NCBI GenBank assembly: GCA_002354055.1
Contig: DEKW01000006.1
Span: 1,864-65,863 of the forward strand
Direction of reading: 5' to 3'
Source: Bacteroidales bacterium UBA2712
GTDB taxonomy: Bacteria; Bacteroidota; Bacteroidia; Bacteroidales; Paludibacteraceae
Length of the DNA stretch: 64,000 bases
The notes under the pieces are model-generated. The model did not search any database and was not told the DNA's origin. It saw only the letters and a list, made by a program, of their open reading frames with translations. Of this stretch, positions 743-55,770 are shown piece by piece. The position numbers and the translations under genes were made by a program. The first letter of the stretch is position 1. The number at the start of each line of letters is the position of its first letter.

Positions 743-1657
743 ATGCTCGCTAAAAGAATAAAGACTTGTATGCATCGACTAAAAGTATTTAGTCTTTACT
801 CCTTATTCCTTATTCTTTTCTCCTGCTTCCTTATTCCTTACTCCGTGAAGGCGGAAGTACCGATATCGAAACCCGATCTGAGCCAGCCTACGGGCATCGC
901 TCCGGCTTTCTTCGGGCCCAATGCCCTGCCGATCATCGACATGTCGGACGGACTGACGGATAACCATCTGCGCCTGGAACTGGCGGCGGATGGTTATATC
1001 GGTTTTCAGAACAACAATACCGTAGATATTTTTGCGCGCGTGCGCGTACCCCTCTTTACGCGCTGGGCGAACCTCTCCGTCTGGATGCCGGTCTATGGCT
1101 GGTACAAGCAGTATGACGGAACCGGCAGCGGTGCCGGAGATGTCTATATCTCTACCGACGTGCAGGTCCTGCATCACTCCTGGTTCCATTCTGACAACGC
1201 CAGATATATCCCGCAGATGACCGTCCGGTTGGGTATGAAGACCGCCTCCGGTGAGCAGTTTGAGCGCCGCCGTCATTACGACTGCCCGGCATATTTCTTC
1301 GACCTCGCCATGGGCCAGTCCATCCCCCTCAAGGCCCTCACTCTCCGTTTCGCGGGCTCGGTGGGCTTCCTATGTTGGCAGACCGATAACGGCCGTCAGA
1401 ACGACGCAGTCATGTACGGTCTGCAGGCGCAGCTGAGACACGAGTTCTTCTCCCTCCAGGCTACCTGGGGCGGCTACGTAGGGTGGGAGCGTCACGGCGA
1501 TGCACCCATGAGCATCAAAGCCCGTGCCGCGGGACACGTCAAGGGCTTCGAACCATACGTCCAGTATCAGTACGGTATCAAGGATTACCCCTTCCATCAG
1601 ATCCGTGTCGGACTCGTCTATAACCTTGATATCTTAGGCCGCGCTACCAAAAAATGA
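743..1657 (+). CDS. Hypothetical secreted / outer-membrane protein (beta-rich, family not recognised)
   Basis: 304-aa ORF with an ATG start. It has an N-terminal hydrophobic signal-like segment and alternating aromatic/polar C-terminal strands. Its stop overlaps the next start (ATGA at 1654-1657). Confidence 0.6.
   Translation: MLAKRIKTCMHRLKVFSLYSLFLILFSCFLIPYSVKAEVPISKPDLSQPTGIAPAFFGPNALPIIDMSDGLTDNHLRLELAADGYIGFQNNNTVDIFARVRVPLFTRWANLSVWMPVYGWYKQYDGTGSGAGDVYISTDVQVLHHSWFHSDNARYIPQMTVRLGMKTASGEQFERRRHYDCPAYFFDLAMGQSIPLKALTLRFAGSVGFLCWQTDNGRQNDAVMYGLQAQLRHEFFSLQATWGGYVGWERHGDAPMSIKARAAGHVKGFEPYVQYQYGIKDYPFHQIRVGLVYNLDILGRATKK
794..842. repeat. Tandem heptamer array, about 7 copies (CTTTACT CCTTATT CCTTATT CTTTTCT CCTGCTT CCTTATT CCTTACT)
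   Basis: Read directly from the sequence. It encodes the hydrophobic core of the signal peptide of the 743..1657 ORF (SLYSLFLILFSCFLIPYS). Confidence 0.8.
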
Positions 1658-4086
1658 AACGACTGATACGATATTGTCTTTTGTCCTTACTCTTTCTTCC
1701 ATACCCTGCAAAGGCCTTGGAGGTAAGTCACACAGCTATGGACGGCAGCGACAGTATTCCGGCGGAGTATTTCCGTAAATGGTATCATCGTACCGACCTG
1801 ATTTATTACCTCGAGGCACTCAACGACCATGTGATTGTAGAGAACCATACACCGGGGCAGTGGTGGCTTCCGGACAGGCTCAGTCTCGCCGTAGCGGGGC
1901 TCCCCTGCACGCAGACGAACTATACGATAGACGGCATGCGGACGGACGACCGTTTTGCTCCCGGCAACACGGTTTTTGTACCGAACATGCAGCAGTACAA
2001 CCTCCTGATCAATACCCATACGGGGCAACTGCAGTTTAGCTCCGATACCGCTGCGCGGGATTATGTGAGGGTGCAATACAATGTTGGTCAGGTAGGTAAC
2101 GGAGCTCCGGCTGCCGGTACTGCCGCGATTGTCAATATCACCCATCGTACCGCCATGCAGAGCGCCGAGACCTTCCGGCATGTCTCTGCCCGCCGCCATC
2201 TGCGAGGCGCGGGCAACGTAGAGGCGGCTTATACCTTCCGAGACAAAGAGGGAAATGCTTTCCGGCAGCACCTGTATGCCTCCTACGGTCAGCGACTCCT
2301 CACGCGCGAGAACGAGCGGGGACTCATCACCGAGGATCCTTATTATGCGGCGAACTACTACAAGGTGCAGGCGGATGGTTTGCTGCCGATGAAGCCGAAT
2401 ACCGTCTTTTCGAAACTCGCCTACCGTCTTAATTTCTCCGGCAAAGAGGATGGCGGAAGCGAGTACCTCTATAACTACAACGAGGTCTATGACCATAAGA
2501 ACTACACGGCGCAGGTATATGTACAACGCCCGTATCTGACTACCGGCCTGACATGGTCAACCAATGTGGTGCACCATCAAGACCTGTCCTTCCGCAGGAA
2601 TATACTGGATATCGACGGCGAGAGTTTCTCTCCATGGGTGGCGGACGGCAAGACGCACGAGTTGAGCTGGACGGTGAATTACGAGCAACCGGTATTATCG
2701 TGGCTCTCGGTGCACGTGCGTGCCCATAACTCCCTCATCCTCTTCCGCCCCGAGCAGAAGCATTTCTCCAACGAACTTTACTTCCGTTCTCCTGTCGCTA
2801 CGGCCGACACCGCGCTCTACCGCTATGAATGGACCAGCAGCGCTTTCGCCGGAGGTATATTGGAGAACACGATCGGCCTCAACGCAGACTACACAATCTG
2901 CCCTCAGCTGGACCTCCATGCGCATCTGGACTTTACGTTGGACGGCTTGATCCTCGGACACGGCAAGAGCAAGATTTCCCCGAACTTCCAAGCCGGTATC
3001 AACTTGGACCTACACCCCTGCCGGTGGTTTGAAATGGGGCTCTCCATCGCTCATCAGCGCATGCCCTACAACGCCGACTATCTGCGCTTCTTCTCCGATG
3101 AATACATGAATGCGGATATCTATCTGGCGGGAACCAACACCCTTTTTGCCACCACCGGAGGTAAGTACCATACCTACCAAAAAGGTCTCATGCAGACTTC
3201 CTATCTGGAGGTACATCTGCCAATCCGTTTTGTGTTCCGCGATAAGCAGGATGGTAAACACGAGATCGTACTGCAGAATGCCTACCGCAAGTTCTTCAAC
3301 GTATGGCATACCTATTATGCCGACGGCATCGAAGCCAACGGCTATTACACGGACGGAAACGGGTTGCCCTACTACCTGACTAACCCCGGCGCGAAATACT
3401 ACGAGGTGGCGCCGACGCCTGCTTTCAAAGGAAATATCCTGATGAACTCCCCATACTATTTCTCCCAACTCACGCGTTATACCTACACGGGCAAGAAAGT
3501 AACGGTAGGTATCTCCTGGCAGTCTATGCAGGCTGCGGGGTACACGGGATTAGGCAATGGACCGAACAGCAATACTATGGGTGTGCTCTCGGAAAGCACG
3601 GCAAACCCGAATACCCTCCGCGCTGCGGAGAATCTGCAAGGCAAAGATGCCGGGGTGGGACGCATGGATCTGGATAAAGGCTTTGTGGCGAGGTTCTATC
3701 TGGGATATAATATCTGCCGATGGGTGCAAGCGGGTCTGACAATCAAATGGACCGACGGCAAACCCTTCACCTCCTACTGCTATTATTATGACGATGCCTC
3801 CCGTCAGATGGCCATCATGCCTCGTACCTCGCGTGGCACGAACCCTACGGACGGTCATTTCGGACGAAGACACGGGGCGATCTACAACGTGGATCTGCAT
3901 CTGCAGGGCTCATGGGAGGTACGCGGCGTTCCGATGCGCCTCAATTTAGAGTGTTATAACATCTGGGATTTCTGTCATGACTTGGCGGAACTGTCCTTCG
4001 AGCAGGACACGCCGAAAGCCGACAGGGCCTCCATCATCATGGCTGTACCTACAGGAATACTGGTATCCTATGCGGTCGATTTATAA
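1654..4086 (+). CDS. Large outer-membrane beta-barrel-like protein (TonB-dependent-receptor-like size, family not recognised)
   Basis: 810-aa ORF with signal peptide MKRLIRYCLLSLLFLPYPAKA. It is rich in Y/G/N/T beta-strand patterns and is translationally coupled to the upstream ORF. Confidence 0.6.
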   Translation: MKRLIRYCLLSLLFLPYPAKALEVSHTAMDGSDSIPAEYFRKWYHRTDLIYYLEALNDHVIVENHTPGQWWLPDRLSLAVAGLPCTQTNYTIDGMRTDDRFAPGNTVFVPNMQQYNLLINTHTGQLQFSSDTAARDYVRVQYNVGQVGNGAPAAGTAAIVNITHRTAMQSAETFRHVSARRHLRGAGNVEAAYTFRDKEGNAFRQHLYASYGQRLLTRENERGLITEDPYYAANYYKVQADGLLPMKPNTVFSKLAYRLNFSGKEDGGSEYLYNYNEVYDHKNYTAQVYVQRPYLTTGLTWSTNVVHHQDLSFRRNILDIDGESFSPWVADGKTHELSWTVNYEQPVLSWLSVHVRAHNSLILFRPEQKHFSNELYFRSPVATADTALYRYEWTSSAFAGGILENTIGLNADYTICPQLDLHAHLDFTLDGLILGHGKSKISPNFQAGINLDLHPCRWFEMGLSIAHQRMPYNADYLRFFSDEYMNADIYLAGTNTLFATTGGKYHTYQKGLMQTSYLEVHLPIRFVFRDKQDGKHEIVLQNAYRKFFNVWHTYYADGIEANGYYTDGNGLPYYLTNPGAKYYEVAPTPAFKGNILMNSPYYFSQLTRYTYTGKKVTVGISWQSMQAAGYTGLGNGPNSNTMGVLSESTANPNTLRAAENLQGKDAGVGRMDLDKGFVARFYLGYNICRWVQAGLTIKWTDGKPFTSYCYYYDDASRQMAIMPRTSRGTNPTDGHFGRRHGAIYNVDLHLQGSWEVRGVPMRLNLECYNIWDFCHDLAELSFEQDTPKADRASIIMAVPTGILVSYAVDL
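1675..1702. repeat. Degenerate heptamer array, about 4 copies (TGTCTTT TGTCCTT ACTCTTT CTTCCAT)
   Basis: Read directly from the sequence. It lies in the signal-peptide coding part of the 1654..4086 ORF. Confidence 0.5.
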
Positions 4087-5878
4087 TTTCGCGAAATATT
4101 ACCTCTTCTGGCTTCTTCTCTTTATTCTGGAGAAACCGGTCTTCATGCTCTCTAACCGCTCCATGATGGGTGAAGTAAGATGGCAGGATTGGTTCTTGGT
4201 GCCGTACCATGCTTTTCCCATGGATCTGAGTGTGGCATCGTATATCATGGTATTCTTCGGCATACTGATGGTAGCTTCCTATTTCCTTCCGTCGCGCCTT
4301 ATTGCGCGGATAGCCGACGGCTATACAGGGCTGTTGTTACTGGTGGCGATGGTGGTTTTCGGTACGGACTTGGGCGTCTTTCCTGCATGGGGGTTCCATC
4401 CGGATAAGACTCTCTTTATCTACCTTGCTTCGCCCAAAGAAGTGCTGGCATGCGCGCCGTGGTGGGTGTGGGTCTTCGGCAGTTTGGGAATCCTCGCTGC
4501 GTGGGGATTGTCCTTCGTGGCTTATCGCTATTGGATGCGCGGTATAGAGGCCATGACGCACCCGGGTACATGGCCCAAGAGGGTAGGAGGTGCCGCCCTG
4601 ATGCTTCTGCTGACCGCAATCCTCTTCCTGCCTATCCGAGGCAGTGTAACCACATCGACGATGAATACCGGCCGCGTCTATTTCTCCGAAAACCAGATGC
4701 TGAACCAAGCTGCCGTGAACCCTATCTTCAATATCGTCGAGTCCATGAGCGTCTTGCAGTTTGATACTCGCCGATACACCTATATGCCCTCTGCCGAAGC
4801 AGAAACCCTCGTCGCAGATATTCTGCCGGCATCTGCTAAGGAAGAAACCTCACCTGAACTTCTGAAAACGAAACGTCCGGATATCGTCTTCTTCATCCTC
4901 GAGAGTTTCTCGCAAAACGCATGGGAAGCGATGCCTAACCTCCGCCGGTTGGCTGCGGAAGGGGTGTATTTCTCCCACGCAGTCGCCTCCTCTTTCCGCA
5001 CCGATAGAGGCGTCGTTGCTGCAATGAGCGGTTTTCCCGGACAGCCTACTTCCTCCGTCATGGTTGTGCCCGCCAAGTCCCGACACCTTCCCCAGATAGG
5101 TAAGTCCCTCTCGCGCGAGGGGTATCATCTGAAGTTCTGGTACGGCGGCGATGAAGACTTCACGAACATGCGCTCGTATCTCATCAGCGGGGGCTTCATC
5201 GACCGCGTCAACGACCATTCCTTCCCGGTGGCTCAACGGTTATCCAAATGGGGTGTGCCGGATCATATCCTCTTCTCCCGCGCAGCGGAAGAGATTGCTA
5301 CCCGCGGAAGTGACCATCCTACGCTCGATGTCATCCTCTCGCTTAGCAGCCATGAACCTTTCGAGGTGCCAACGGCAGACCGCTACCATCATCCATACAT
5401 GAATTCCATCGCCTATACCGACAGTTGTATCGGTGCTTTTGCGGATACTTTGCGCAGATGCGGGAAATGGGAGAATACCCTCTTGGTGTTCGTGCCGGAT
5501 CACGGTTACCCTTATCCCGCCGACGTGCAGAACCACGAGCCGCGGCGGTACGCCATACCGATGGTATGGGCAGGCGGTGCCATCGCGCAACCGCAGGAGG
5601 TGACTGCCCTCTGCTCGCAAATCGATCTCGTCCCTACGCTGCTCGCGCAGATGGGAATCGATCATTCAGAATATATTTTCGGAAAAGATATCTTCGCTCC
5701 GAACTCAGTGCCCTTCGCTTTCTATAGCTTCAACGACGGCTTTGCGCTCCTCACGGAGAGCGATACCGTAGTCGTAGATGCCAAGGCCGACAGACGCGTT
5801 ATCGGAACCGATGAGGACGTAGAGCGTCATGCCCGTGCGTTCGTGCAGCGCGTCTTGGAGAGTATAGAGCAGCTATAG
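4070..5878 (+). CDS. LTA-synthase / sulfatase-family membrane protein (alkaline-phosphatase superfamily, phosphoglycerol- or phosphoethanolamine-transferase-like)
   Basis: Multiple N-terminal TM segments are followed by a sulfatase-like domain (FFILESFSQ..., SSHEPF, FVPDHG). I chose the ATG at 4070 (MRSIYNF...) over the longer ORF start at 3977, which would overlap the upstream gene by more than 100 nt. Confidence 0.8.
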   Translation: MRSIYNFAKYYLFWLLLFILEKPVFMLSNRSMMGEVRWQDWFLVPYHAFPMDLSVASYIMVFFGILMVASYFLPSRLIARIADGYTGLLLLVAMVVFGTDLGVFPAWGFHPDKTLFIYLASPKEVLACAPWWVWVFGSLGILAAWGLSFVAYRYWMRGIEAMTHPGTWPKRVGGAALMLLLTAILFLPIRGSVTTSTMNTGRVYFSENQMLNQAAVNPIFNIVESMSVLQFDTRRYTYMPSAEAETLVADILPASAKEETSPELLKTKRPDIVFFILESFSQNAWEAMPNLRRLAAEGVYFSHAVASSFRTDRGVVAAMSGFPGQPTSSVMVVPAKSRHLPQIGKSLSREGYHLKFWYGGDEDFTNMRSYLISGGFIDRVNDHSFPVAQRLSKWGVPDHILFSRAAEEIATRGSDHPTLDVILSLSSHEPFEVPTADRYHHPYMNSIAYTDSCIGAFADTLRRCGKWENTLLVFVPDHGYPYPADVQNHEPRRYAIPMVWAGGAIAQPQEVTALCSQIDLVPTLLAQMGIDHSEYIFGKDIFAPNSVPFAFYSFNDGFALLTESDTVVVDAKADRRVIGTDEDVERHARAFVQRVLESIEQL

Positions 5879-7092
5879 ACCATCCCTACCGTCCATAACG
5901 CAATGCCGTCGAACTTGCCGAACATGCAATCCGTCAGCATATTCAGGCCGAAGAGGGTGACGAAAAGAGCAGCAAACCGCTTTCCTTCACCTTCTGTACA
6001 GAAGAGAATAGACAGCCATGCCAGGAGGAACAGCACTAGACCCGGTATGCCAATCTCCATCAGCTCCTCCAGATATTGGTTATGGGCATGATAATGTTTG
6101 GTATAATAATATTCAAACCCTTTTTCCTGGTACGTCTTCATCAGATAATTCGTACTTTGTCCGGCTCCCAGACCGTACGCGAGATAGTCCTCGGGGTGCT
6201 GCAACGCGCAGCCCCAGATATTAAACCGCACGTCGTGGTCCGTACTGACTTCGCGGATCTCGGTCGCCGCATGGATATCAAACTTACTCATTCGCGGATG
6301 GAACTTCAGTATGGTTCCGCTGATGACAGCGCCAAAGACGATAATCCCCAAACCATAACGCCAGCGATAGACCTTTGGTAACGCATAGATAAGCCAAACG
6401 ACTAATATAGCTGCGAAAGTGAGGATGGATTGCCGGGAACCCGTCAGCGGTATGGCACTCAGCATAATCGGCAGACACAGCGCCAACAACCATTTCTTAT
6501 CCCGCCATACCTGCAGTGCGATCACAGCGCCTAACATCTCCACCGAGCATAGAAAAAGACGGTGTTTCAAGACCGAGATATTATCCGAGAAGAAGCTATA
6601 CCAAGAGTGGACACCATAGTTCCAGTCGCCTTCCCATCGGAGATAATCAATAATCTCGCGATGGTAGTACAACGGTGACAGTACCACCAAGTAAAACGGA
6701 ACGGCGATGACACAACTGACAACCAGAATCCGACCGATTTGTTGCCAGTCATACCGCTCGTTGACGCCCCATATGCCTATCGGAATTACCAAGGCGAAGG
6801 TCATATATCGCTCCATCTGCCATGCCCATGCTTCATGATCCGGCGACCATATACCCGATACCGCTTTCCATCCGTACCAAAGGCCGAAAAGCAAGAACGG
6901 CAGGGCGGATCTGAACGTTGAATGTTGAATGTTGAATGTTGAATGTTGAAGCCACCGTCCCTCCAGCGCCCATGAGATGAACCAGAACACGCAGGCGTAC
7001 CGCAACCATAGCTGCGGGAAAGGCAACAACGCCACTACTGCTAGAAAGGCAATATAGTTAACCTGCTTAATGATGTCTTTGTACTTGCTCAT
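5827..7092 (-). CDS. O-antigen ligase / polymerase (Wzy_C-like) family membrane protein
   Basis: 421-aa polytopic membrane ORF with a central LTGSRQS loop motif typical of O-antigen ligase-like proteins. Its 3' end overlaps the convergent gene by 52 nt. Confidence 0.7.
   Translation of the reverse strand: MSKYKDIIKQVNYIAFLAVVALLPFPQLWLRYACVFWFISWALEGRWLQHSTFNIQHSTFRSALPFLLFGLWYGWKAVSGIWSPDHEAWAWQMERYMTFALVIPIGIWGVNERYDWQQIGRILVVSCVIAVPFYLVVLSPLYYHREIIDYLRWEGDWNYGVHSWYSFFSDNISVLKHRLFLCSVEMLGAVIALQVWRDKKWLLALCLPIMLSAIPLTGSRQSILTFAAILVVWLIYALPKVYRWRYGLGIIVFGAVISGTILKFHPRMSKFDIHAATEIREVSTDHDVRFNIWGCALQHPEDYLAYGLGAGQSTNYLMKTYQEKGFEYYYTKHYHAHNQYLEELMEIGIPGLVLFLLAWLSILFCTEGEGKRFAALFVTLFGLNMLTDCMFGKFDGIALWTVGMVYSCSILSKTRCTNARA
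6917..6951. repeat. Tandem heptamer array (GTTGAAT x4 plus GTTGAAG)
   Basis: Read directly from the sequence. On the coding (minus) strand it encodes HSTFNIQHSTF inside the O-antigen-ligase-like ORF. Confidence 0.9.
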
Positions 7093-11550: not shown

Positions 11551-11552
11551 AC

Positions 11553-30938: not shown

Positions 30939-30965
30939 ATAGTCATGTGATTTTAAAATCGGCGG

Positions 30966-31469: not shown

Positions 31470-31498
31470 AAAGCGACAAAGCGACAAAGCGACACGAC
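31470..31498. repeat. Tandem octamer AAAGCGAC x3 (plus partial copy)
   Basis: Read directly; non-coding. Confidence 0.9.
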
Positions 31499-31509
31499 AT
31501 ATTTCGCAA

Positions 31510-31536
31510 AAAGTGCAGAAAGTGCAAAAAGTGCAA
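31510..31536. repeat. Tandem nonamer AAAGTGCA(G/A) x3
   Basis: Read directly; non-coding. Confidence 0.9.
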
Positions 31537-31685
31537 AGCCAATATTTGCGTTGAATGGGGTAGGTGACGGTAGTCTGTGGGTAGCTGAATATCTAACGAA
31601 TAACGAACGAATATCTAACTAATAACTAACGATTGGAAGGTAAGAATCTCGAAGTTGAGTTGGAAACAGACACAAGCTTAGTCCG

Positions 31686-31716
31686 AAAAGGAACAGGCTG
31701 AAAAAAGGAACAGGCT
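31686..31716 (+). repeat. Paired direct repeat AAAAGGAACAGGCT x2 immediately upstream of the wHTH gene start
   Basis: GAAAAGGAACAGGCTGAAAAAAGGAACAGGCTTG, read directly. The same pair recurs at 31976-32010. Confidence 0.85.
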
Positions 31717-31721
31717 TGAAT

Positions 31722-32051: not shown

Positions 32052-32093
32052 TGAACAACAACAAAGATAAGTGAAATAAAAAACAACAAAGAT

Positions 32094-34082: not shown

Positions 34083-34129
34083 AGATATTCAATAATGTTT
34101 AAAGTTTAATGTTTAAAGAATTAGAGATT

Positions 34130-49530: not shown

Positions 49531-50415
49531 ATGAACCAAAAGACGTTTTATCATATCATTGAGTGGGCTGTGGCGCTCGCAGCGTGCGTATTTCTGGGCT
49601 ACAAACTGGTCACGTTCGAGGACTATCCTGCCTTGTGGGAGAGTCTTCGTGGCATGGCATGGCAGCACTATCTGGCGCTCGGCCTGTGTGTGGCGCTGAT
49701 GCCGGTGAACATGGCGATCGAGGCGTGGCGGTGGCAGACGTTAATGAATGAAGGAGTGAACGAATTAACGAGTGAACGAATGGCGTTCAGCGAGGCGCAG
49801 CGGCAGGTCTATTATTCCAAACTCGCCGGACTCATTACCCCTTGGCGGCTGGGTGAGTACCCCGCGAGAGGGGTGTTAATGGGTGAACCTGTCTGGCCGC
49901 GGGTGTTGAGTATGGGGGCGGTAGGCAGTGCCACGATGACGGCGGCAATCGTCATCGCCGGCGTGGTAGCATTGGCGTTCAGCCCATCGGTCATGGCGCA
50001 GTTAGGCGATAGTTATCTCTACGCCCTCGCAGCGGTTATTCTGCTCTTGGCGATTGCTTTTGCGTTGGCACCCAAAGCCCTGAAGAAATTCGCCGAAGTG
50101 AACCAGCAACTGCTCTTCCGTAGCTTAGCCCAGAGCCTCATTCGGTTGCTCTGTTGGTGCGTCCAGCTCGCATTGGTGCTTTGGGCGCTGGGAGCGGTTA
50201 CTGGTGATGGGTTACTGGTGATGGGTTACGGATTACCGATTTATTATCTGCTGGTGACCATCACGCCGAATGTGCCGATTGCGGAAGTAGGCGTACGCGG
50301 CGCATGGGCGATTGTAGTATTCGGGTCGATGAACGCAGCCTTGGCTGGCGTCCTGCTATGGGTGATAAACACCCTGCTACCCTGCCTCGGATGGTTCTTT
50401 TTTAGGAAAAAATAA
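49531..50415 (+). CDS. Polytopic membrane protein, lysylphosphatidylglycerol-synthase-TM / UPF0104 (flippase-like)-type
   Basis: 294 aa with about 8 hydrophobic segments. The family call rests on general resemblance only. Confidence 0.5.
   Translation: MNQKTFYHIIEWAVALAACVFLGYKLVTFEDYPALWESLRGMAWQHYLALGLCVALMPVNMAIEAWRWQTLMNEGVNELTSERMAFSEAQRQVYYSKLAGLITPWRLGEYPARGVLMGEPVWPRVLSMGAVGSATMTAAIVIAGVVALAFSPSVMAQLGDSYLYALAAVILLLAIAFALAPKALKKFAEVNQQLLFRSLAQSLIRLLCWCVQLALVLWALGAVTGDGLLVMGYGLPIYYLLVTITPNVPIAEVGVRGAWAIVVFGSMNAALAGVLLWVINTLLPCLGWFFFRKK
50197..50238. repeat. Tandem heptamer array, 6 copies with 14-nt super-period (GGTTACT GGTGATG GGTTACT GGTGATG GGTTACG GATTACC)
   Basis: Read directly. 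It encodes VTGDGLLVMGYGLP inside the membrane protein. Confidence 0.9.
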
Positions 50416-50422: not shown

Positions 50423-50454
50423 CTTGCGTATGTCGCAAAAAAGCAGTAATTTTG
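50423..50454 (+). promoter_or_regulatory. Bacteroidota-type promoter of malQ (CTTG, 20 nt spacer, TAATTTTG)
   Basis: CTTGCGTATGTCGCAAAAAAGCAGTAATTTTG. It shares the CTTGCGTATGTC module with the promoter at 56631. Confidence 0.7.
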
Positions 50455-50492
50455 TAGCCGAAAGTGAAAAATATAAAAAACACCATTATACC

Positions 50493-53096
50493 ATGAACAT
50501 TAATTTTCAGATTCATTATCGTGCCGAGTACGGCCAGAGTCTCTGCGTGATTGAGACGCAGGAGTCGATTTTAGGCTGGTCTGAGAAAGACCCGTTGGTG
50601 CTGAATTGCCAAGGAACCGATTTCTGGCAGGCAAACGTCCCCATTAGCGATTTTGCCGGCAGTATTCAGTACAAATATGCGATTCGTCTGCAGGACGGAC
50701 GATATATCTATGAGGCAGGCGAACCCCGTACCTTGGCTCTCAAAGCCGCTGACAAGAAACTCGTCGTTCGCGACGCTTGGCAGGCAAGCACCTATGAGGA
50801 CAGTTTCTATACGACCGCCTTCCTCAAGTCCCTTTTTATGCGCCATAACCCCGCTAAGGTGAAGGTCCCAAAGGGTAACGTCCGTTTCTCCATCGACCTG
50901 CCGCAGATCCTGCCGACACAGGGCGTAGCGATCGTCGGTAACTGCCCGGAGTTAGGCGACTGGAATGTCGATAACAAGCTCGTTATGAGCGATGCGGAGT
51001 TCCCGGTTTGGAAAGCAGATATCAAGGTCTCGGAGGCGCAGATCATCGAATATAAATACCTCGTTTATGACCTCAAGACCGGCGCGCAGGTAGATATGGA
51101 GTGGGGTGAGAACCGCCAGATCTGGGGCATCGAGAAGGGTATGGTCATCTGCCAGAACGACCGTGGTTTCCGCCGCACGCAACCGCGATGGAAAGGTGCC
51201 GGCGTAGCTGTTCCGGTCTTCTCGCTCCGTACGGAGGAGGGCTTCGGTATCGGTGAGTTCCAGGACCTCAAGAAGATGGCAGACTGGGCTGCGGCTACGG
51301 GTCAGAAGATGATCCAGACCCTGCCGATCAACGATACCACGCTCCGTCATAATAACCTCGACAGTTATCCTTACAACGCTGTTTCCGTTTTCGCGCTTCA
51401 TCCGATATATATCAATATCGAGAAGATGGGTCGCCTGACGCCGGCGCAGAAGAAGAAATACGAAGCGCAGAAAGCGGAGTTCAACGCCCTCAAGATCGCT
51501 GATTACCAGAACGTCTATGACGCCAAGACCGTCTTCTTCAAGGCGCTCTTCAAGCAGGACAAGGATGCGCTCTTCTCCTCCGAGGAGTATAAGGCGTTCT
51601 TTGCGAAGAACCGTGAGTGGCTCGAGCCCTATGCCGAGTTCCTCCACAAGCGCGACAAGCAGCCGAAGGAGTACTACTATTTTCTGCAGTTCCATGCCGA
51701 CAAACAGCTGGCGGACGCAGTGGCTTATGCTCACTCAATCGGCGTGGCGATGAAAGGAGATATACCTATCGGTATCAGCCCCGACTCCGTCGATGCAGCC
51801 GTTTATCCGGAGCTCTTTAACCTGGACGCTTCCGCAGGAGCACCGCCCGATGACTTCTCTATCTCCGGCCAGAACTGGGGATTCCCGACCTATAACTGGG
51901 ATAAGATGGCAGAGGATAACTTCGCTTGGTGGCAGAAACGGTTCCGTAAGATGCAGGACTATTTCGATGCTTACCGTGTAGATCATATCCTTGGTTTCTT
52001 CCGTATCTGGCAGATGCGCAAGACGGACGTGTGGGGTCTCTGCGGTCATTTCGTTCCGGCGCTGCCGTACAGCTACGACGACCTCTGTGCGCAAGGCGTT
52101 TGCCTCGACTGGGACCGTATGACCAAGCCCTATATCCGCTCGAATTTCTTAGGTGATGTCCTGGGTTATGATACCGAGTGGGCGAAGAAGAATGCCCTTC
52201 AGACCCGCGATGGATACGTCTATTGGTTCCGTCCGGAGTTTGATACGCAAGTCAAAGTGCAGGAGTGGTACGACCGCCTGATGGAAGATCCGAAGCAACT
52301 CAAAGCAGCAGGCTTGAGCAAAGAGGCTGCGAAGAATATCTGCAACGGCTTGATTTATCTCCATTGCGAGGTGCTGATGGTAGAAGACCAGCGTCGTCCT
52401 GGATGGCTCCATCCGCGTATCTCGATCTACCAGAGCCACTCTTTCAACGAGCTCTACTCCGACCAGAAAGAGGTGCTCATGCGAATCTACAATGAGTATT
52501 TCTATCGCCGTCATACGCAGTTCTGGCGTGATTCCGCGATGCGCAAACTGCCGACGCTTATCGGCGCAACGAAGATGCTCTGCTGCGGCGAGGATCTCGG
52601 TATGGTGCCCGCTTGTGTGCCTGACGTGATGCATGAGTTGCAGATCCTCAGTCTCGAGATCCAGCGTATGCCGAAAGACCCGACGGTGAAGTTTGCACAC
52701 CCTGCCGACGCTCCGTATCAGTCTGTCTGCACCACCGGTACGCACGACATGAACCCGCTCCGCGCGTGGTGGGAAGAAGACCGCGCGGTAACGCAACAGT
52801 TCTACAATGAGCAAATGGGCTGGTGGGGCGATGCCCCCAAAGAGATGACGCCGGAGATCGCAGAGTTCATCATCAACCAGCATATGTATTCACCTGCGAT
52901 GTGGACCATCCTGCCGCTGCAAGACTGGCTCGCTATCGACGGCGACGTACGTATCAAAGACCAGTTCTCGGACCGCATCAATGTGCCCGCTAACCCGCGC
53001 CATTTCTGGAACTACCGCATGCACCTGTCCATCGAACAGCTGCTAAAGGAGAAGAAACTGAATGAGAAAATAAAGAAACTCACGTCGGTGAGATAA
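50493..53096 (+). CDS. malQ: 4-alpha-glucanotransferase (GH77, amylomaltase) with N-terminal starch-binding (CBM20-like) domains
   Basis: GVAVPVFSLRTEEGFGIGEF...YPYNAVSVFALHPIY...RVDHILGFFRIW...CGEDLG...TGTHD are GH77 catalytic signatures. I chose the ATG at 50493, downstream of the promoter. Confidence 0.9.
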   Translation: MNINFQIHYRAEYGQSLCVIETQESILGWSEKDPLVLNCQGTDFWQANVPISDFAGSIQYKYAIRLQDGRYIYEAGEPRTLALKAADKKLVVRDAWQASTYEDSFYTTAFLKSLFMRHNPAKVKVPKGNVRFSIDLPQILPTQGVAIVGNCPELGDWNVDNKLVMSDAEFPVWKADIKVSEAQIIEYKYLVYDLKTGAQVDMEWGENRQIWGIEKGMVICQNDRGFRRTQPRWKGAGVAVPVFSLRTEEGFGIGEFQDLKKMADWAAATGQKMIQTLPINDTTLRHNNLDSYPYNAVSVFALHPIYINIEKMGRLTPAQKKKYEAQKAEFNALKIADYQNVYDAKTVFFKALFKQDKDALFSSEEYKAFFAKNREWLEPYAEFLHKRDKQPKEYYYFLQFHADKQLADAVAYAHSIGVAMKGDIPIGISPDSVDAAVYPELFNLDASAGAPPDDFSISGQNWGFPTYNWDKMAEDNFAWWQKRFRKMQDYFDAYRVDHILGFFRIWQMRKTDVWGLCGHFVPALPYSYDDLCAQGVCLDWDRMTKPYIRSNFLGDVLGYDTEWAKKNALQTRDGYVYWFRPEFDTQVKVQEWYDRLMEDPKQLKAAGLSKEAAKNICNGLIYLHCEVLMVEDQRRPGWLHPRISIYQSHSFNELYSDQKEVLMRIYNEYFYRRHTQFWRDSAMRKLPTLIGATKMLCCGEDLGMVPACVPDVMHELQILSLEIQRMPKDPTVKFAHPADAPYQSVCTTGTHDMNPLRAWWEEDRAVTQQFYNEQMGWWGDAPKEMTPEIAEFIINQHMYSPAMWTILPLQDWLAIDGDVRIKDQFSDRINVPANPRHFWNYRMHLSIEQLLKEKKLNEKIKKLTSVR

Positions 53097-53100: not shown

Positions 53101-53126
53101 CGTAATCCCGTAATAACGTAATTACG
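53101..53126. repeat. Tandem octamer (CGTAATNN) x3 plus partial copy
   Basis: CGTAATCC CGTAATAA CGTAATTA CG, read directly. It spans the malQ-ispH intergenic gap and the ispH stop. Confidence 0.8.
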
Positions 53127-54021
53127 ATTGGTAAAAGTCCGTGAGTAGATCGCGGACTTTTTCCATTAACCATAACGGTGTACTTGTCGCACCGCAGATA
53201 CCGACTTTTAGAGTTGAAAGTTGAAAGTTGAAAGTTGAAAGTTTTTCCTCCAACTCGTCCGGCGACGAGACAAAGATCGTCTTCGGGTTCGCCTCTAAAC
53301 AGTGGTTGTATAGCACTTTTGCGTTGGAGCTCTTACCGCCGCCGACGAAGATCACGAGGTCCTGTGCCTTCGCGAAAGCCTGCAATTGCGCCACCCTGTT
53401 CGCTACCGACCGGCAGATGGTGTCATGCGCTTCCAGCGCAATTTGAGATTTAAGATTTGAGATTTGAGATTTTATCGCCTTGACAAGACTCTGAAAGCCT
53501 TCCACGCTCTTTGTGGTCTGCGAGAAGAGGTAGATTGCTCTCGAGAAATCGAGTTGGTCCAACTCCTCCTCGTGCTCGATGACGATGGCGGTGTTGTTCG
53601 TCTGCCCCTGCAGCCCGATGACCTCGGCATGGCCGCGTTTGCCGTAGATGACGATCTGCGGCGGGACGGCTTCGTCGTTCTTATGCAAGTCGTAGCAGGC
53701 GCGGATACGGTCCTGTAGCTTCTTCACCACCGGACAGGTCGCGTCGATGACCTCTATCCCCCGCTGCTCGGCAATCCAGTACGTGCTCGGCGGTTCGCCG
53801 TGAGCCCTGAGCAACACTCGCGAGTGGGGTGGTAACGAACGCAGGTCGTCGTTGTCGATCGTCTGCAAGCCCAAACCCTCTAACCGCGCTACCTCCTGAC
53901 CGTTATGCACGATGTCCCCCAAGCAACAAAGAGCCCCTTTTCGGAGCTCTTCTTCCGCTGTCCGGATGGCGCGCGTCACGCCGAAACAAAAACCGCTATT
54001 AGAGTCTATCGTACAGATCAT
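53122..54021 (-). CDS. ispH: 4-hydroxy-3-methylbut-2-enyl diphosphate reductase
   Basis: The N-terminus ...SGFCFGVTRAI matches the IspH/LytB Cys motif. ...DATCPVV..., ...NTICRSV... and GICGATSTP are also present. Confidence 0.9.
   Translation of the reverse strand: MICTIDSNSGFCFGVTRAIRTAEEELRKGALCCLGDIVHNGQEVARLEGLGLQTIDNDDLRSLPPHSRVLLRAHGEPPSTYWIAEQRGIEVIDATCPVVKKLQDRIRACYDLHKNDEAVPPQIVIYGKRGHAEVIGLQGQTNNTAIVIEHEEELDQLDFSRAIYLFSQTTKSVEGFQSLVKAIKSQISNLKSQIALEAHDTICRSVANRVAQLQAFAKAQDLVIFVGGGKSSNAKVLYNHCLEANPKTIFVSSPDELEEKLSTFNFQLSTLKVGICGATSTPLWLMEKVRDLLTDFYQS
53133..53162. terminator. Bidirectional hairpin (AAAAGTCCG...CGGACTTTT) with flanking A/T runs, lying inside the last codons of ispH
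   Basis: 9-bp stem read directly. It sits 37 nt downstream of the malQ stop. Confidence 0.55.
53213..53247. repeat. Tandem heptamer array (GTTGAAA x4 plus GTTTTTC)
   Basis: Read directly. On the minus strand it encodes STFNFQLSTL just upstream of the conserved GICGATSTP motif of IspH. Confidence 0.9.
53441..53475. repeat. Tandem heptamer array, 5 copies (ATTTGAG ATTTAAG ATTTGAG ATTTGAG ATTTTAT)
   Basis: Read directly. On the minus strand it encodes KSQISNLKSQI in IspH. Confidence 0.9.
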
Positions 54022-54676
54022 AGATGATTTTCATTTGCTCGTCCGGCGTCATGTCGCTGTTATCTACGACGATGGCATCTTCGGCCTGCCGCAACGGGCT
54101 CTCCGCACGATGCGTATCGCGGTAGTCGCGGTCGTTGACATCCGCCAATACCTCTTCATAGACGGGCTTCTCGCCTTTGGCTACCAGCTCGTCGTACCGC
54201 CGTTGCGCGCGAACCTCCGGCCGAGCCGTGAGGAACAACTTGAGATCCGCCTTCGGGAAGACTACCGTACCGATGTCGCGACCGTCCATGACGATGCTCT
54301 GGTTAGCACCCATCGCCTGTTGCTGGGCAACGAGAAAAGCACGCACCTCTTTGATCTGCGAGATCTCCGAAGCGCGGTTGCCGACCTCGAGTGTCCGTAT
54401 CTGACTCTCTACATCTTCGCCGTTCAGCGTCACGTGCTGCGCATCGCCAACCCGCACAAAACCTACCTTGATCTTGGGCAAGAGCGCAATGATCTCCTCG
54501 TCGCTCAGTCTTTCGACTTTCGACTTTCGACTTTCGGCTAATACGTATAACGCAATAGCGCGATACATGGCGCCGGTATCTACATAGGTCGCATGCGCAT
54601 GCTTCGCCAGCGCCTTGGCTATCGTCGATTTCCCGCACGACGAATATCCGTCTATAGCAACAATGATCTTTTTCAT
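53999..54676 (-). CDS. cmk: Cytidylate kinase
   Basis: IVAIDGYSSCGKST P-loop, ...VDTGAMYR..., ...VMDGRDIGTVVFP... 225 aa. It overlaps the ispH start by 23 nt. Confidence 0.9.
   Translation of the reverse strand: MKKIIVAIDGYSSCGKSTIAKALAKHAHATYVDTGAMYRAIALYVLAESRKSKVERLSDEEIIALLPKIKVGFVRVGDAQHVTLNGEDVESQIRTLEVGNRASEISQIKEVRAFLVAQQQAMGANQSIVMDGRDIGTVVFPKADLKLFLTARPEVRAQRRYDELVAKGEKPVYEEVLADVNDRDYRDTHRAESPLRQAEDAIVVDNSDMTPDEQMKIIYDLYDRL
54504..54538. repeat. Tandem heptamer array (CTCAGTC TTTCGAC TTTCGAC TTTCGAC TTTCGGC)
   Basis: Read directly. On the minus strand it encodes AESRKSKVERL in Cmk. Confidence 0.9.
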
Positions 54677-55770
54677 TTTAGTAACGAGTTTATATCTAAT
54701 GTCAGTCCGACCTGGTACGAGAAGTTGGACTTGGTCATCTGGCTGATGGCGAAATCCACATGCGCCTGTTTGATTCGTACGCCGAGGCCCAACGCGAATC
54801 CAGCTAACGACCGCTGATCGGCGAGGTTCAACTCCGCGCGGCGGCGGTGGTTATATGAGAAAGCGATGTAGAACCGCTCGCGTTTATCTACTACCTCTAT
54901 TGTCCATATCGTGTGTCGGAACAGCATGTCGTACCATTTGACGTTATGGGGGATGATATCTCCGGTCGTCACGTTCTTGTCCATACCCGTCCATTCGTAG
55001 TTCAGGTACCAGGTCTGCAGGTTATGCGCCTGCAGGTGAAACCGCAACGGTGCGTGCTTCACTCGGTAAGTCAGACCCAACTGCAGGTTCAGCGGCAGCA
55101 TCTCGTGGTTCGAACCGCCTTCCTCCGAGTAAAAACCCTTCAACTGCCATCCTATGTTCTGCAGCACCAGCCCCATCTGGAAGGTCGAGTCGGGGCTTTG
55201 GAAATGCGCTCCTACGTCCGCGCCTAACGCAAACGAACTATAACTCTCGTAGATCGAATAGACCGGCTTGAGTGTCACGCCGACCTTGAACATCCGTCCT
55301 AACTGGCGCGCGTACATCACGTCTATCAAGATGTCCCGAGCGCCAAACGAACCACCGGTCTTGTTGCCGTCTTTGTCGGCGTAGTACATCTTGCCGTAGT
55401 CCAAGTAATGGATACCCACTGCGAAATAGTTCGGCTTGTCGGGCTCACCCTCTGGCGGCTTCTCGATCTTCGACCGTCCGAAATTATGCCCGTATAACAC
55501 GCTGCCGAACATCGTTCCCGGCAGGTAGTAGCTGTAGTTGAGTTGCAGCATCATGTGGCTGTTAGCATGCAGCAACGCCGGGTTGCACATGCCCATCGCG
55601 ATATCCCCGTCGCTGAGCGAGACGTTCGACCCGCCCAAGGCGTTGATGCGCGACGATACCGGCAGACTCATAAATGAGAACACCGACCGCCCTGCATTCG
55701 ACACCTGACCAAAGGAACAAAGGGACAAAGTACAAAGTACAAGGGTTACTATTTTTTTTCTTATAGCCAC
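54673..55770 (-). CDS. porQ: Type IX secretion system membrane protein PorQ-like
   Basis: Signal peptide followed by ...SVFSFMSLPVSSRINALGGSNVSL.DGDI....NPALL, which is characteristic of the PorQ family. About 340-aa beta-barrel-like body. GTG start at 55770. Adjacent to and upstream of cmk. Confidence 0.65.
   Translation of the reverse strand: MAIRKKIVTLVLCTLSLCSFGQVSNAGRSVFSFMSLPVSSRINALGGSNVSLSDGDIAMGMCNPALLHANSHMMLQLNYSYYLPGTMFGSVLYGHNFGRSKIEKPPEGEPDKPNYFAVGIHYLDYGKMYYADKDGNKTGGSFGARDILIDVMYARQLGRMFKVGVTLKPVYSIYESYSSFALGADVGAHFQSPDSTFQMGLVLQNIGWQLKGFYSEEGGSNHEMLPLNLQLGLTYRVKHAPLRFHLQAHNLQTWYLNYEWTGMDKNVTTGDIIPHNVKWYDMLFRHTIWTIEVVDKRERFYIAFSYNHRRRAELNLADQRSLAGFALGLGVRIKQAHVDFAISQMTKSNFSYQVGLTLDINSLLK
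55709..55745. repeat. Tandem 7-8-nt array (NACAAAG-type, about 5 copies)
   Basis: CCAAAGGAACAAAGGGACAAAGTACAAAGTACAAGGG, read directly. On the minus strand it encodes the PorQ signal-peptide core LVLCTLSLCSF. Confidence 0.8.

Follow-up and report, generated by a model that had tools for sequence, protein, structure and literature searches.

Tandem repeats with a 7-nt unit are known from several bacterial groups. STRR sequences of Calothrix and Nostoc are built from a few defined units, lie mostly between genes and often form long arrays. The palindromic elements of Rickettsia (RPEs), which Ogata and colleagues reportedly described in 2000 as in-frame selfish insertions, and the small dispersed repeats (SDRs) of Nostoc, which Elhai and colleagues are said to have found in 2008 embedded in heptamer arrays, each possess a conserved sequence and a hairpin. 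An excess of heptanucleotides is a general feature of some prokaryotic genomes, according to the accounts of Mrazek et al. (2007) given in PMC4679880 and PMC4692102, and PMC4692102 also mentions Calothrix PCC 7601 as having three heptanucleotides repeated in tandem. G-rich GGGNATC/GGGGAYT repeats with a preference for about four units and variable copy number are found in Xanthomonas and Nostoc (PMC4692102). TAACTGA repeats (2–6 copies of a single unit, located mostly a few nucleotides upstream of start codons and proposed to be a regulator site) occur in Beggiatoaceae, cyanobacteria and five Bacteroidetes, including Paludibacter propionicigenes; other heptamer repeats were noted near them, and cold-shock or S1-type OB folds were proposed as their binders (PMC4679880). 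The phase-variable contingency loci of Haemophilus and Neisseria contain long intragenic tetra- to heptanucleotide repeats, some near the 5′ ends of envelope genes, which vary in copy number among strains and switch genes off by frameshift (PMC2651432, PMC3315296).

The DNA analysed here, a window of 64,000 nucleotides, derives from an uncultured rumen lineage of Paludibacteraceae (order Bacteroidales). The signal of short period-7 arrays in this window is real and lies far above chance: six exact period-7 runs of at least 2.5 copies were observed, compared with 0.06 ± 0.24 expected from 100 dinucleotide-preserving block shuffles. In total, 12 period-7 or period-14 arrays were identified in the window by TRF. 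Array lengths range from 18 to 51 nt (mostly 26–39 nt) and thus do not agree with the original prediction that many arrays are exactly 35 nt. The arrays are as follows.

789–844 (TRF, 796–844), plus strand: period-7/21 array of TTATTCC/TTACTCC, about seven copies with 73% match (TRF and translation), encoding aa 16–34 (FSLYSLFLILFSCFLIPYS), a signal-peptide-like hydrophobic core, of a 304-aa ORF (743–1657) for which no Pfam match was found.
1675–1710, plus strand: degenerate period 7 (TTGTCTT TTGTCCT TACTCTT TCTTCCA), recognized by eye, encoding aa 8–19 of an 810-aa ORF (1654–4086).
6912–6950, minus strand: (GTTGAAT)5.6 as read on the plus strand (sense, ATTCAAC), TRF score 71, encoding aa 48–61 (LQHSTFNIQHSTFR) of a Wzy_C O-antigen-ligase-like membrane protein (5827–7092).
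25881–25931, minus strand: about 6.6 copies of (CTGRMTC), showing a 14-nt super-period and encoding aa 249–266 of a TamB-like 1563-aa protein (21985–26676).
31185–32317, no strand assigned: at least 10 differing short arrays with units of 8, 9, 11 and 19–22 nt in an AT-rich leader/intergenic region upstream of a giant surface-protein operon.
34093–34118, plus strand: (TAAAGTT)3.7, covering an intergenic gap and the start codon of a 3480-aa surface-protein ORF (34109–44551).
47805–47830, minus strand: (GGTGTAC)3.7, encoding aa 556–564 of a 654-aa ORF (47531–49495), kept in strains L081, L082 and L001.
47880–47914, minus strand: GGTTAGN with 7/8/15-nt periodicity, encoding aa 528–539 (TTNPLTTNPLTP) of the same 654-aa ORF.
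49048–49086, minus strand: (TGATTTM)5.6 with a 14-nt super-period, encoding aa 137–150 of the 654-aa ORF.
49362–49387, minus strand: (AAGGTTG)3.9, encoding aa 37–45 of the 654-aa ORF.
49746–49782, plus strand: 8/16-nt array (GAATGAAC GAGTGAAC), encoding aa 72–84 of a 294-aa membrane ORF (49531–50415).
50196–50229, plus strand: 14-nt unit (GGTTACT+GGTGATG), 2.4 copies, encoding aa 222–233 of the same membrane ORF.
53101–53126, no strand assigned: 8-nt array (CGTAATNN)3.2 located in the 25 nt that separate the convergent GH77 (50424–53096) and IspH genes, entering the 3′ end of the IspH ORF (53122–54021) by 5 nt.
53212–53243, minus strand: perfect (AGTTGAA)4.6 (sense, TTTCAAC), encoding IspH aa 260–270 (KLSTFNFQLST).
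53441–53472, minus strand: (ATTTGAG)4.6, encoding IspH aa 184–194 (KSQISNLKSQI), at a helix end and the next loop.
54510–54536, minus strand: perfect (CTTTCGA)3.9 (sense, GAAAGTC), encoding aa 47–56 (AESRKSKVER) of cytidylate kinase (Cmk).
55710–55742, minus strand: 8-nt array of CAAAGGAA (TRF, 55710–55730) adjoining a 7-nt array of ACAAAGT (TRF, 55725–55742), together encoding aa 10–21 (LVLCTLSLCSFG) in the signal-peptide-like N-terminus of a 365-aa ORF (54673–55770).

The array positions originally predicted were reproduced by TRF to within a few bases, except for 1675–1710, where TRF called nothing and only a degenerate period-7 pattern of about 70% identity is present; this is the weakest member of the set. 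The arrays at 34093, 47805, 49362 and 49746 were added by TRF. The arrays with 8–11-nt units noted earlier at 31 kb and 53101 were recovered as the 8–22-nt cluster at 31185–32317 and the 8-nt array at 53101–53126; the cluster resembles the other arrays in kind, yet none of its members is heptameric. The expected 14-nt super-period is present at 25881, 49048 and 50196. Every host ORF reads through its array, in line with the claim that intragenic arrays are in frame, and this is clear for IspH and Cmk because homology to solved structures resumes on both sides of the arrays. The AT-rich segment at 28–47 kb was considered as a mobile element, and this was rejected; its genes encode an AAA_14/DUF4143 ATPase, a Fic-like_C protein and giant surface proteins with Listeria-Bacteroides repeats and Big_2 domains. 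Exact-protein look-ups returned no record for the 174-aa ORF at 55828–56352, Cmk or the TTG-start form of the Fic-like ORF, and the ATG-start form of the latter yielded one 100% identical contig only.

The array trait is genome-wide and clade-wide, as the original prediction had supposed for the genome. In 2.1 Mb of non-redundant related DNA, 584 arrays with a period of 7 were found, and the numbers of arrays with periods of 5, 6, 8, 9, 10, 11, 14 and 15 were 0, 7, 123, 63, 14, 83, 71 and 56, respectively, whereas about 0 arrays were found after shuffling of the same DNA. The array density is about 3 per 10 kb. Scans of genome and metagenome contigs gave matches from this same clade only, and the homologue search comprised the best 120 matches, all with ≥80% identity. 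Segments of 50 kb from Escherichia coli and from the Bacteroides phage crAss001, used as method controls only, each contained 0 period-7 arrays. Rumen phage contigs with terminase, portal and DnaB genes carry arrays as well. All related sequences are metagenome assemblies and a few strains show odd frameshifting deletions (20, 34 and 86 nt), but the probability that the arrays are assembly or sequencing artefacts is close to nil, given that the arrays reappear in assemblies produced independently, by different studies and with different assemblers (RUG, UBA, RGIG and metaWRAP MAGs, JGI contigs, ENA and Logan), preserve the reading frame and show variation that is coherent with phylogeny.

The heptanucleotide excess itself is known and the arrays are not new in kind; their largely intragenic form is new. 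The original prediction was aware of no equivalent in Bacteroidota, and this has to be corrected, as heptamer repeats were noted in a few Bacteroidetes, including P. propionicigenes (PMC4679880); a literature search on rumen or Bacteroidales heptamer repeats gave nothing relevant. The closest likeness is to LSSR5-11 (Mrazek, Guo & Shah 2007), described in PMC4679880 and PMC4692102 as over-represented arrays with many different units, heptamers being commonest, in non-pathogen hosts, for which slippage rather than function was invoked. The rumen arrays likewise show an excess over composition, a predominance of heptamers and whole-unit variation among strains (+21, +24 and +30 nt; from assemblies). 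In these descriptions, however, LSSR5-11 whose unit length is not divisible by three are found mostly outside genes, whereas about 60% of the heptamer arrays of the rumen clade lie in ORFs and in frame. Rumen Paludibacteraceae are not covered there, and essentially no 5- or 6-mers are present in the rumen clade.

The 589 period-7 TRF rows fall into 130 canonical unit classes. The heptamer units are 68% A+T, and 63% of them contain a homopolymer run of ≥3 nt, compared with 31–44% expected. No conserved motif was found in the sequences flanking the arrays (≤0.07 bit per position), on which ground site-specific insertion was rejected; the diversity of units and the lack of a flanking motif together uphold the earlier view that the arrays reflect a process rather than one mobile sequence. 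STRR sequences share with the rumen arrays a 7-nt tandem unit, genome-wide dispersal and restriction to a lineage, but they have few units, whereas the rumen clade has at least 130 units in 3–6 copies, mostly in coding sequence. The units that we take to be STRR1, STRR2 and STRR3 were found 0, 2 and 0 times, respectively, among the 589 rows. Unlike the Xanthomonas and Nostoc repeats, the rumen units are AT-rich, mostly coding and without G-tracts; the G-tract of ≥3 nt per unit required for a G-quadruplex (G4) is lacking, with GGGAATC and GGGGATT both at 0 among the 589 rows. The 4–5-copy mode is common to both groups, which suggests that G4 formation may not be needed to account for it. TAACTGA arrays also numbered 0 among these rows, and most arrays lie more than 11 nt from a start codon. 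The rumen arrays resemble RPEs and SDRs as short DNA of non-coding origin tolerated in frame at surface positions of conserved proteins, with sequence families recurring at unlinked sites. They differ in that, in place of a conserved element with defined ends or a hairpin, the rumen inserts have diverse units and unconserved flanks, being themselves tandem repeats of locally varying units.

Among 284 arrays, 170 are located inside ORFs, 38 at ORF edges and 76 in intergenic DNA, which makes up about 10% of the sequence and holds 27% of the arrays (about 2.7-fold per-base enrichment). The main selective filter, missed by the original prediction, is a unit without stop codons in all three sense frames. 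The sense unit is of this type in 240 of the 276 genic arrays (87%); the antisense strand reaches 32% and intergenic units 47%, and the composition-based expectation is 46%. The strand bias and some of the alternating unit variants are consequences of this filter. As the G-poor bias of the sense strand vanishes once both strands are stop-free, an RNA-level or transcription-coupled orientation bias was rejected.

Copy numbers peak at 4–5 (about 30–32 nt), and the intergenic arrays, counted by floor copies, number 18, 22, 24 and 6 for two, three, four and five copies, respectively, a distribution without a monotonic fall. The size peak, together with the four arrays in the 654-aa ORF, which is highly polymorphic among strains, and the several arrays in N-terminal signal-peptide-like segments, could be taken to indicate a selected function. 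The arrays would then serve as evolvability or contingency sites for surface loops and signal peptides, or as targets of an oligomeric protein that binds nucleic acids with a footprint of 7 nt (a cold-shock or S1-type OB fold). Xanthomonas heptamers also favour four units (PMC4692102), and CspB, as reviewed in PMC4679880, binds one heptamer per protein. We nevertheless regard a selected function as quite unlikely. The cytoplasmic housekeeping enzymes IspH and Cmk, in which peptide variation has no obvious value, are equally hit, no sequence-specific binder would fit units of such diversity, stop-codon avoidance fully accounts for the orientation bias, and many lineages are repeat-free at the same sites. 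In contrast to the repeats of contingency loci, moreover, the rumen arrays keep the frame, also in essential housekeeping genes: length differences located at arrays among seven same-species strains are all multiples of three and do not switch genes on and off, the one possible exception being gene F, a split ORF in L170.

These strains are about 96% identical, and most of their in-gene length differences fall at arrays, with sizes such as 21 nt (3 × 7), 24 nt (3 × 8) and 30 nt (2 × 15). In the 654-aa ORF, the array at 47880–47914 is shorter by 24 nt in L170, L171 and L173 and by 15 nt in L001 and is replaced in L082; the array at 49048–49086 gives way to a 15-mer (ATAAACCGCGAAGCG) present in one copy in L174 and three copies in L081 and L168; and the array at 49362–49387 sits in a 51-nt segment missing from L081 and L168. 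The site at 49746–49782 has 24, 30 or 39 extra nucleotides in strains. A few exceptions lie outside arrays: L173 and L174 have deletions that shift the frame (20, 34 and 86 nt), and L170 and L171 carry a gene insertion of 1.25 kb. An intergenic 30-nt insertion, (TTTTCAA)4.3, is present in L082, with an empty site in all other strains.

At IspH site 2 and at the Cmk site, most relatives show a baseline sequence that lacks repeats, and at the site of IspH aa 260–270 other species carry either heptamers of another sequence or a baseline of 57 nt without repeats. Compared with solved (PDB) homologues, the arrays add a net 4–6 residues to IspH and Cmk at indel-prone sites, and in the AF2 model these sites are helix ends and the loops after them. 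The arrays are thus lineage-specific additions at tolerant sites, as had been proposed. At the site of IspH aa 184–194, at least six unrelated alleles were found among proteins that are at least 80% identical. The interpretation originally offered is partly supported overall, and its claim that only three-unit gains survive holds for some comparisons. Steps of 21 nt are seen between alleles of IspH site 2 (63 vs 84 nt and 51 vs 72 nt), P0118 and P0114 differ by 7 aa (+7 aa, P0114 vs P0118), Cmk has a +24-nt (3 × 8) allele, and the 15-mer at the 49048–49086 site is in one or three copies among strains. Differences from the repeat-free baseline, however, are often +3, +6, +9, +12, +15, +18 or +27 nt; because these are not multiples of 21, a three-unit gain is not the sole route. 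Orthologous arrays with different units are often of exactly equal total length, and alleles are shuffled between the two IspH sites. AAATCAN units resemble the adjoining conserved ACAAATCCCGAC flank, and the array unit is clearly the exact ancestral local heptamer for the AAATCAN class at IspH site 2, but not clearly so at Cmk and gene F.

Several observations could be explained by tiny mobile or gene-conversion cassettes, i.e. pre-formed arrays of about 30 nt copied between loci via ectopic conversion or an RNA/DNA intermediate, in a manner reminiscent of SDRs or RPEs. One unit family can be found at unlinked sites in a strain. The GAACGAGT/TAACGAAT family is present in gene F, at a second gene F site and in Cmk of L081, L168, L173 and L174 (the unit family of the 49746–49782 array recurs at the Cmk site of the same four strains), the CGTAATNN family of the GH77/IspH spacer is also found inside IspH in L001, and the 15-mer TAAACGGCGAAGCC occupies two sites of gene E. 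In Cmk of same-species strains, the heptamer array is swapped for an 8-mer array within flanks that are near-identical, with one substitution, over >150 nt on each side. Arrays within a genome have units in common more often (5.4% identical) than arrays of different genomes (2.3%), a 2.4-fold difference that could also reflect a unit preference and hints at copying between arrays or a strain-specific bias, and a few units dominate (GTTGAAA, 50 of the 589 rows). We still consider such cassettes unlikely, since neither ends nor a target motif are conserved across the 130 unit classes, units often resemble the local flank, as AAATCAN does, copy-number steps within alleles look slippage-like, and the window shows neither a transposase nor a reverse transcriptase associated with the arrays. 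The shuffling of IspH alleles also shows that ordinary interstrain homologous recombination can move alleles.

The arrays are probably the footprint of a lineage-wide slippage/realignment process with a 7–8-nt register, filtered by selection, and suggest an uncommon type of copying error in the lineage, not a new genetic device. The nascent strand would realign on its template during replication or repair in a 7-nt or, less often, 8-nt register, and a local AT-rich heptamer, present initially as one copy, would become a short tandem array that is later expanded or contracted. This process would act on all DNA in the cell, including resident or infecting phage genomes, and purifying selection would set which arrays remain visible. 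A genic array would survive if the segment tolerates an arbitrary peptide (a signal-peptide core, helix end or loop), if all three sense frames of the unit are free of stops or the copy with a stop has mutated, and if the net length change is a multiple of three, which would favour steps of three units (21 or 24 nt) and composite units of 14/15 nt. Rounds of contraction and re-expansion would homogenize the units, so that orthologous sites drift to different heptamers, and the encoded peptides would be by-products. Predominance of the smallest loops able to escape repair would give the sharp onset at 7 and the decay from 7 to 10.

Classical slipped-strand mispairing requires at least two copies, and its step is limited to units able to mispair. 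Polymerase slippage with a 7-nt contact length has already been proposed for the heptanucleotide excess (Mrazek et al. 2007, as related in PMC4679880). Several observations argue against slippage. Arrays of about 4–5 units are found where close relatives have 0–2 units, copy number peaks instead of declining monotonically, even in intergenic DNA, whole arrays are replaced by arrays of an unrelated unit and period between same-species strains, orthologous arrays with different units often keep equal total length, units are shared more within than between genomes, a few strain length differences fall outside arrays, and nothing in the data accounts for 7 in place of 5 or 6. Intermediates with one or two additional units would frameshift the essential IspH and Cmk genes, so that one has to suppose a burst of several units, shelter from additional chromosome copies, or indels that compensate.

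It is conceivable, if unlikely on balance, that a distinct replication or repair activity overwrites about 30 nt in one event with 4–5 iterations of a local 7–8-nt template, the arrays being the scar of a specific enzyme or pathway, or of serial slippage sheltered by polyploidy, and not of generic slippage. If true, such single-event overwriting would both generate arrays and substitute one for another, essential genes included, would explain the mode of about four units common to Xanthomonas and cyanobacteria, and perhaps would apply to other heptamer-rich lineages. That a dedicated lineage-specific enzyme (a repair polymerase, primase-polymerase or reverse-transcriptase-like enzyme) adds about 3–5 iterations of a 7–8-nt template at breaks or gaps in one event is very unlikely. 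Arrays of about 4–5 units apparently without intermediates, including the L082 insertion, the peaked copy number, the sharp cut-off below 7 nt and overwritten patches whose net length change is far below the array length would all be in keeping with such an enzyme, but no candidate gene was found within the 64-kb window and the 20-kb loci, stepwise copy-number alleles exist, and the heptamer excess in unrelated phyla (PMC4679880, PMC4692102) speaks for a general replication property.

The heptanucleotide excess has been known since 2007, and this clade represents a natural experiment on its mechanism. It contains hundreds of independent and recently turned-over arrays, many of them in conserved single-copy genes from which the ancestral state, reading frame and structural tolerance can be read off, so that the step size, the birth of arrays and the reasons for 7 nt and about four copies become testable by comparative genomics combined with read-level population data. 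For the organisms themselves, the arrays produce hypervariable peptide segments in housekeeping and envelope proteins. In these abundant rumen MAGs, they also disrupt alignments and strain-level read mapping and may find use as strain markers.

Heptamer arrays in the window are real and form a strong signal. Period-7 exact self-matches of at least 2.5 copies numbered 6, against 0.06 ± 0.24 in 100 dinucleotide-preserving shuffles of the window, which bears out the anticipated excess over shuffled sequence. The heptamer units given in the original prediction were confirmed by reading the sequence, and nearly all of the arrays it listed were recovered by TRF, the exception being 1675-1710, which is weak, degenerate and without a TRF call. 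Its description of many arrays as exactly 35 nt did not hold, as lengths range from 18 to 51 nt, with most at 26-39 nt.

Arrays called by TRF in the window
796-844, period 7 or 14
6912-6950, period 7 or 14
25881-25931, period 7 or 14
34093-34118, period 7 or 14
47805-47830, period 7 or 14
49048-49086, period 7 or 14
49362-49387, period 7 or 14
50196-50229, period 7 or 14
53212-53243, period 7 or 14
53441-53472, period 7 or 14
54510-54536, period 7 or 14
55725-55742, period 7 or 14
47880-47914, mixed 7/8/15-nt periodicity
49746-49782, 8-nt array
53101-53126, 8-nt array
55710-55730, 8-nt array
31185-32317, dense cluster of 8-22-nt arrays

The cluster at 31185-32317 is a 1.1-kb AT-rich stretch in which arrays are packed ~100 times as densely as elsewhere in the window. 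Its short tandem arrays are of at least 10 kinds (units ATGTCGCT, AACTTTGA, AAAGTCTC, AAAGCGAC, GCAAAAAGT, GAATAACTAAC, AAGAGTCTC, TTTTGCCAC and CTTACAAAACC, together with 19-22-nt AAAAAGGAACAGGCT-type repeats). The stretch encloses a small Fic-like_C gene and lies upstream of a 662-aa ORF, the first ~100 codons of which look like a leader rather than protein, and of a Listeria-Bacteroides-repeat surface protein of 3480 aa. An imperfect, GC-rich repeat of 12/27 nt (CGCCGCCTTCAC) is found at 61887-61952 inside the minus-strand ORF 61333-62982; its unit length is divisible by three, which makes it a repeat at the protein level and sets it apart from the heptamer arrays. The sign of the GC skew reverses near 24-28 kb (24000-28000), where genes likewise switch from the minus to the plus strand, and reverses once more near 52 kb (~52000); this may mark a replication landmark or simply follow gene strand.

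Upon translation, every host ORF in the window reads through its array(s), in line with the predicted conservation of reading frame.

Host ORFs in the window (the first four assigned by Pfam and PDB searches)
53122-54021, IspH/LytB, two arrays
53999-54676, cytidylate kinase (Cmk)
21985-26676, TamB-like protein
5827-7092, Wzy_C O-antigen-ligase-like protein
47531-49495, 654-aa ORF (gene E), four arrays
49531-50415, 294-aa membrane ORF (gene F), two arrays
743-1657, array encoding a hydrophobic, signal-peptide-like N-terminus
1654-4086, array encoding a hydrophobic, signal-peptide-like N-terminus
54673-55770, array encoding a hydrophobic, signal-peptide-like N-terminus

Aligned to the Aquifex structure 3dnf, the IspH arrays coincide with indel positions (net +6 and +5 residues), and the Cmk array corresponds to +4 residues relative to 3r8c. 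In the AlphaFold2 model of IspH (mean pLDDT 82.5), one array lies at the C-terminal end of helix 173-190 and in the loop after it and the other at the helix end 254-262 and its loop; block 261-270 has a confidence of 70, among the lowest in the model. The proposal that arrays sit in tolerant positions appears reasonable for IspH and Cmk on these alignments and this model, with the correction that the model places one array in an extended helix, not in a loop.

Translation of a heptamer array passes through every one of the three frames. For 240 of 276 genic arrays (87%), the sense consensus unit had no stop in any of the three; the antisense strand of genic arrays was stop-free in 32%, and intergenic arrays were stop-free on a given strand in 47%, versus a composition expectation of 46%. 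The sense strand of genic arrays is G-poor (9% G), but this bias vanishes in the subset with both strands stop-free; it is therefore a consequence of the stop filter, and a transcription- or RNA-level signal was ruled out on the same ground. Copies falling in a stop-giving frame are altered, e.g. in AAATCAT arrays, AAATCAC, AAATCAA or AAATCAG stands at precisely those places where TCA-TAA would result. Stop avoidance accounts for part of the alternating unit variants, whose existence had been correctly noted.

The trait is clade-wide among the rumen Paludibacteraceae-type loci sampled. IspH-anchored loci in species-representative genomes all came from uncultured rumen Bacteroidales/Paludibacteraceae MAGs (protein identity 65-88%), and with rumen metagenome contigs the identity rises to 99%. 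Almost all sub-lineages contain ~3 period-7/14 arrays per 10 kb, and a few 21-kb loci are without any; none was found in control sequences of 50 kb from E. coli K-12 and 50 kb from Bacteroides phage crAss001. The shuffled 2.1-Mb set gave 0 TRF arrays at periods up to 8.

Arrays by smallest period in the non-redundant DNA (2.1 Mb) of 157 related loci (TRF score of at least 40)
Period 4, 2 arrays
Period 5, 0 arrays
Period 6, 7 arrays
Period 7, 584 arrays
Period 8, 123 arrays
Period 9, 63 arrays
Period 10, 14 arrays
Period 11, 83 arrays
Period 12, 62 arrays
Period 14, 71 arrays
Period 15, 56 arrays

The 589 period-7 TRF rows from the related loci were classified into 130 canonical unit classes of uneven abundance (GTTGAAA, 50; GTCGAAA, 30; GGTGATT, 30). 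Units are 68% AT, and 63% contain a homopolymer run of at least 3 nt, compared with 31-44% expected. None of these rows contains TAACTGA, GGGAATC, GGGGATT or the STRR1/3 units, and a search for a flanking motif yielded none (information content of at most 0.07 bit per position). The median copy number was 4.6 by TRF, with a modal array length of 30-32 nt; floor-copy counts from our own detector were 8, 50, 86, 20 and 3 for 2, 3, 4, 5 and 6 copies in genic arrays and 18, 22, 24 and 6 for 2, 3, 4 and 5 copies in intergenic arrays. Approximately 60% of arrays lie inside ORFs, 13% at ORF edges and 27% in intergenic DNA, which makes up ~10% of the sequence.

Alleles differ extensively between species and strains. 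At the C-terminal IspH site (53212-53243), some species have a 57-nt repeat-free sequence, and others have CTTTCAA, CTCTCCA, AAATCAN, ACTCATT, AATTTCA, GATTGAA or CAATCAG arrays. At the Cmk site (54510-54536), a repeat-free 'TLRHNLTxxADIIAALP' segment is conserved in most of the clade; six or more sub-lineages carry arrays, each independently distinct (GAAAGTC, CCAAGAG, GTCAGCR, ATCAGAN, GTTGAGA and GGTTACR). Three-unit (21-nt) gains, as originally proposed, were seen in IspH (63 vs 84 nt and 51 vs 72 nt; +7 aa between the relatives P0114 and P0118), and a Cmk 8-mer allele shows a three-unit step of +24 nt (3 × 8); however, net differences from the repeat-free baseline are often +3 to +27 nt, and not every change is a multiple of 21. 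A 15-mer allele is present in one or three copies between strains.

Orthologous arrays with quite different units frequently share an identical total length (the IspH 72-nt class; the window and locus L084 at Cmk), a pattern that we read as concerted evolution. In a comparison of seven strains (identity ~96% over 8.5 kb), the majority of length differences within genes fell at arrays, and several array sites carry unrelated alleles. The Cmk array was swapped inside flanks essentially identical for >150 nt on each side, with one substitution. An identical unit is shared by arrays within one locus in 5.4% of cases versus 2.3% between loci. Among the best 120 IspH relatives, with proteins at least 80% identical (P0001-P0120), alleles at the two sites occur in many combinations, e.g. 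KSQISNLKSQ at site 1 (53441-53472) with LSTFNFQLST, LAEYREQIQTNPDW, FQSEGRSFSETVFQR or LIQQCRATE at site 2, which indicates frequent homologous recombination among strains and species of the clade.

Other differences were also observed in the strain alignments. A 15-nt unit family, ATAAAC(C/G)GCGAAGC(G/C), occurs at two sites of the gene E orthologue in L081/L168 (aligned to window ~49054-49082 and 48338), in 1 or 3 copies and within a 69-nt insert, and is present in some same-species strains and absent from others; it includes the GCGAAGC motif, a known DNA mini-hairpin of high stability. Two same-species strains, L170 and L171, carry at window ~47546 a 1.25-kb insertion, absent from the window, that is bounded by a direct repeat of CGCGCGAAGT and contains a 375-aa ATPase_2/AAA_14 gene related to the AAA_14/DUF4143 gene at 29745-31025. 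Frameshifting deletions of 34, 86 and 20 nt in L173 and L174 (window 51242-51275, 52859-52944 and 55666-55685) lie away from arrays, and some strain contigs have split ORFs: GH77 is split in L173 and gene F in L170. Pseudogenes or errors in metagenome assembly may account for these differences.

(TTTCAAC)4 was found in seven IMG/VR contigs. The examined ones have genes for terminase, portal, DnaB-like helicase, replication initiator or anti-repressor, and carry several more heptamer arrays with other units, typically of ~4.6 copies. Arrays in phages fit a property of the cell where the DNA replicates, with the caveat that these contigs were picked via one array. The low-GC (36.5%) phage contig L164 (IMG/VR UViG 3300007142_000090, 1-3475), which has a portal gene, contains eight heptamer arrays in 3.5 kb (TTTCAAC/GTTGAAA and AATTGAA, up to 10 copies); the phenomenon therefore also occurs in phages of a compositionally different host.

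The best-supported reading, which we consider somewhat probable, combines a slippage or realignment process with selective filtering of coding sequence. Throughout the lineage, mutation by slippage or primer realignment would act on AT-rich local sequence in a 7-nt, less often 8-nt, register; in coding DNA, a strict sieve would pass only arrays at sites that tolerate indels, with all sense frames free of stops and a net length that is a multiple of 3, and repeated contraction and expansion would homogenise the units. Because E. coli MutS handles loops only up to ~4 nt, the sharp onset at 7 and decay to 10 would match a process dominated by the shortest loops able to evade mismatch repair. An explanation of the slippage type has already been put forward for the surplus of heptanucleotide repeats in other prokaryotes (Mrazek et al. 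2007, as related in PMC4679880).

Plain slippage does not easily explain the origin, in essential genes, of ~4-5-unit arrays out of 0-2 copies, the peak in copy number (intergenic DNA included), array swaps within identical flanks, the conserved total length, or the sharing of units within a genome. Three rivals therefore stay alive: arrays could be small copied cassettes; they could be kept for a selected function; or they could be made by a dedicated writing activity.

The rumen arrays behave like the LSSR5-11 heptanucleotide simple-sequence-repeat enrichment and the cyanobacterial STRRs; like the Xanthomonas/Nostoc GGGNATC repeats (PMC4692102), they have a mode of ~four units, but they lack G-tracts. 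What sets them apart from all three is their mostly intragenic, in-frame placement, the diversity of their units and the taxon. A contingency-locus system was ruled out because frame-preserving differences are the rule and hosts include housekeeping genes, and an RPE/SDR-type element because the arrays have no conserved sequence. Heptamer direct repeats are known from five Bacteroidetes, including Paludibacter (PMC4679880), and no account of the phenomenon described here turned up in the searchable literature. The arrays are thus a known kind of repeat in a largely intragenic form that is new, and the finding would be weightier if their burst or overwrite behaviour reflects a specific enzyme.
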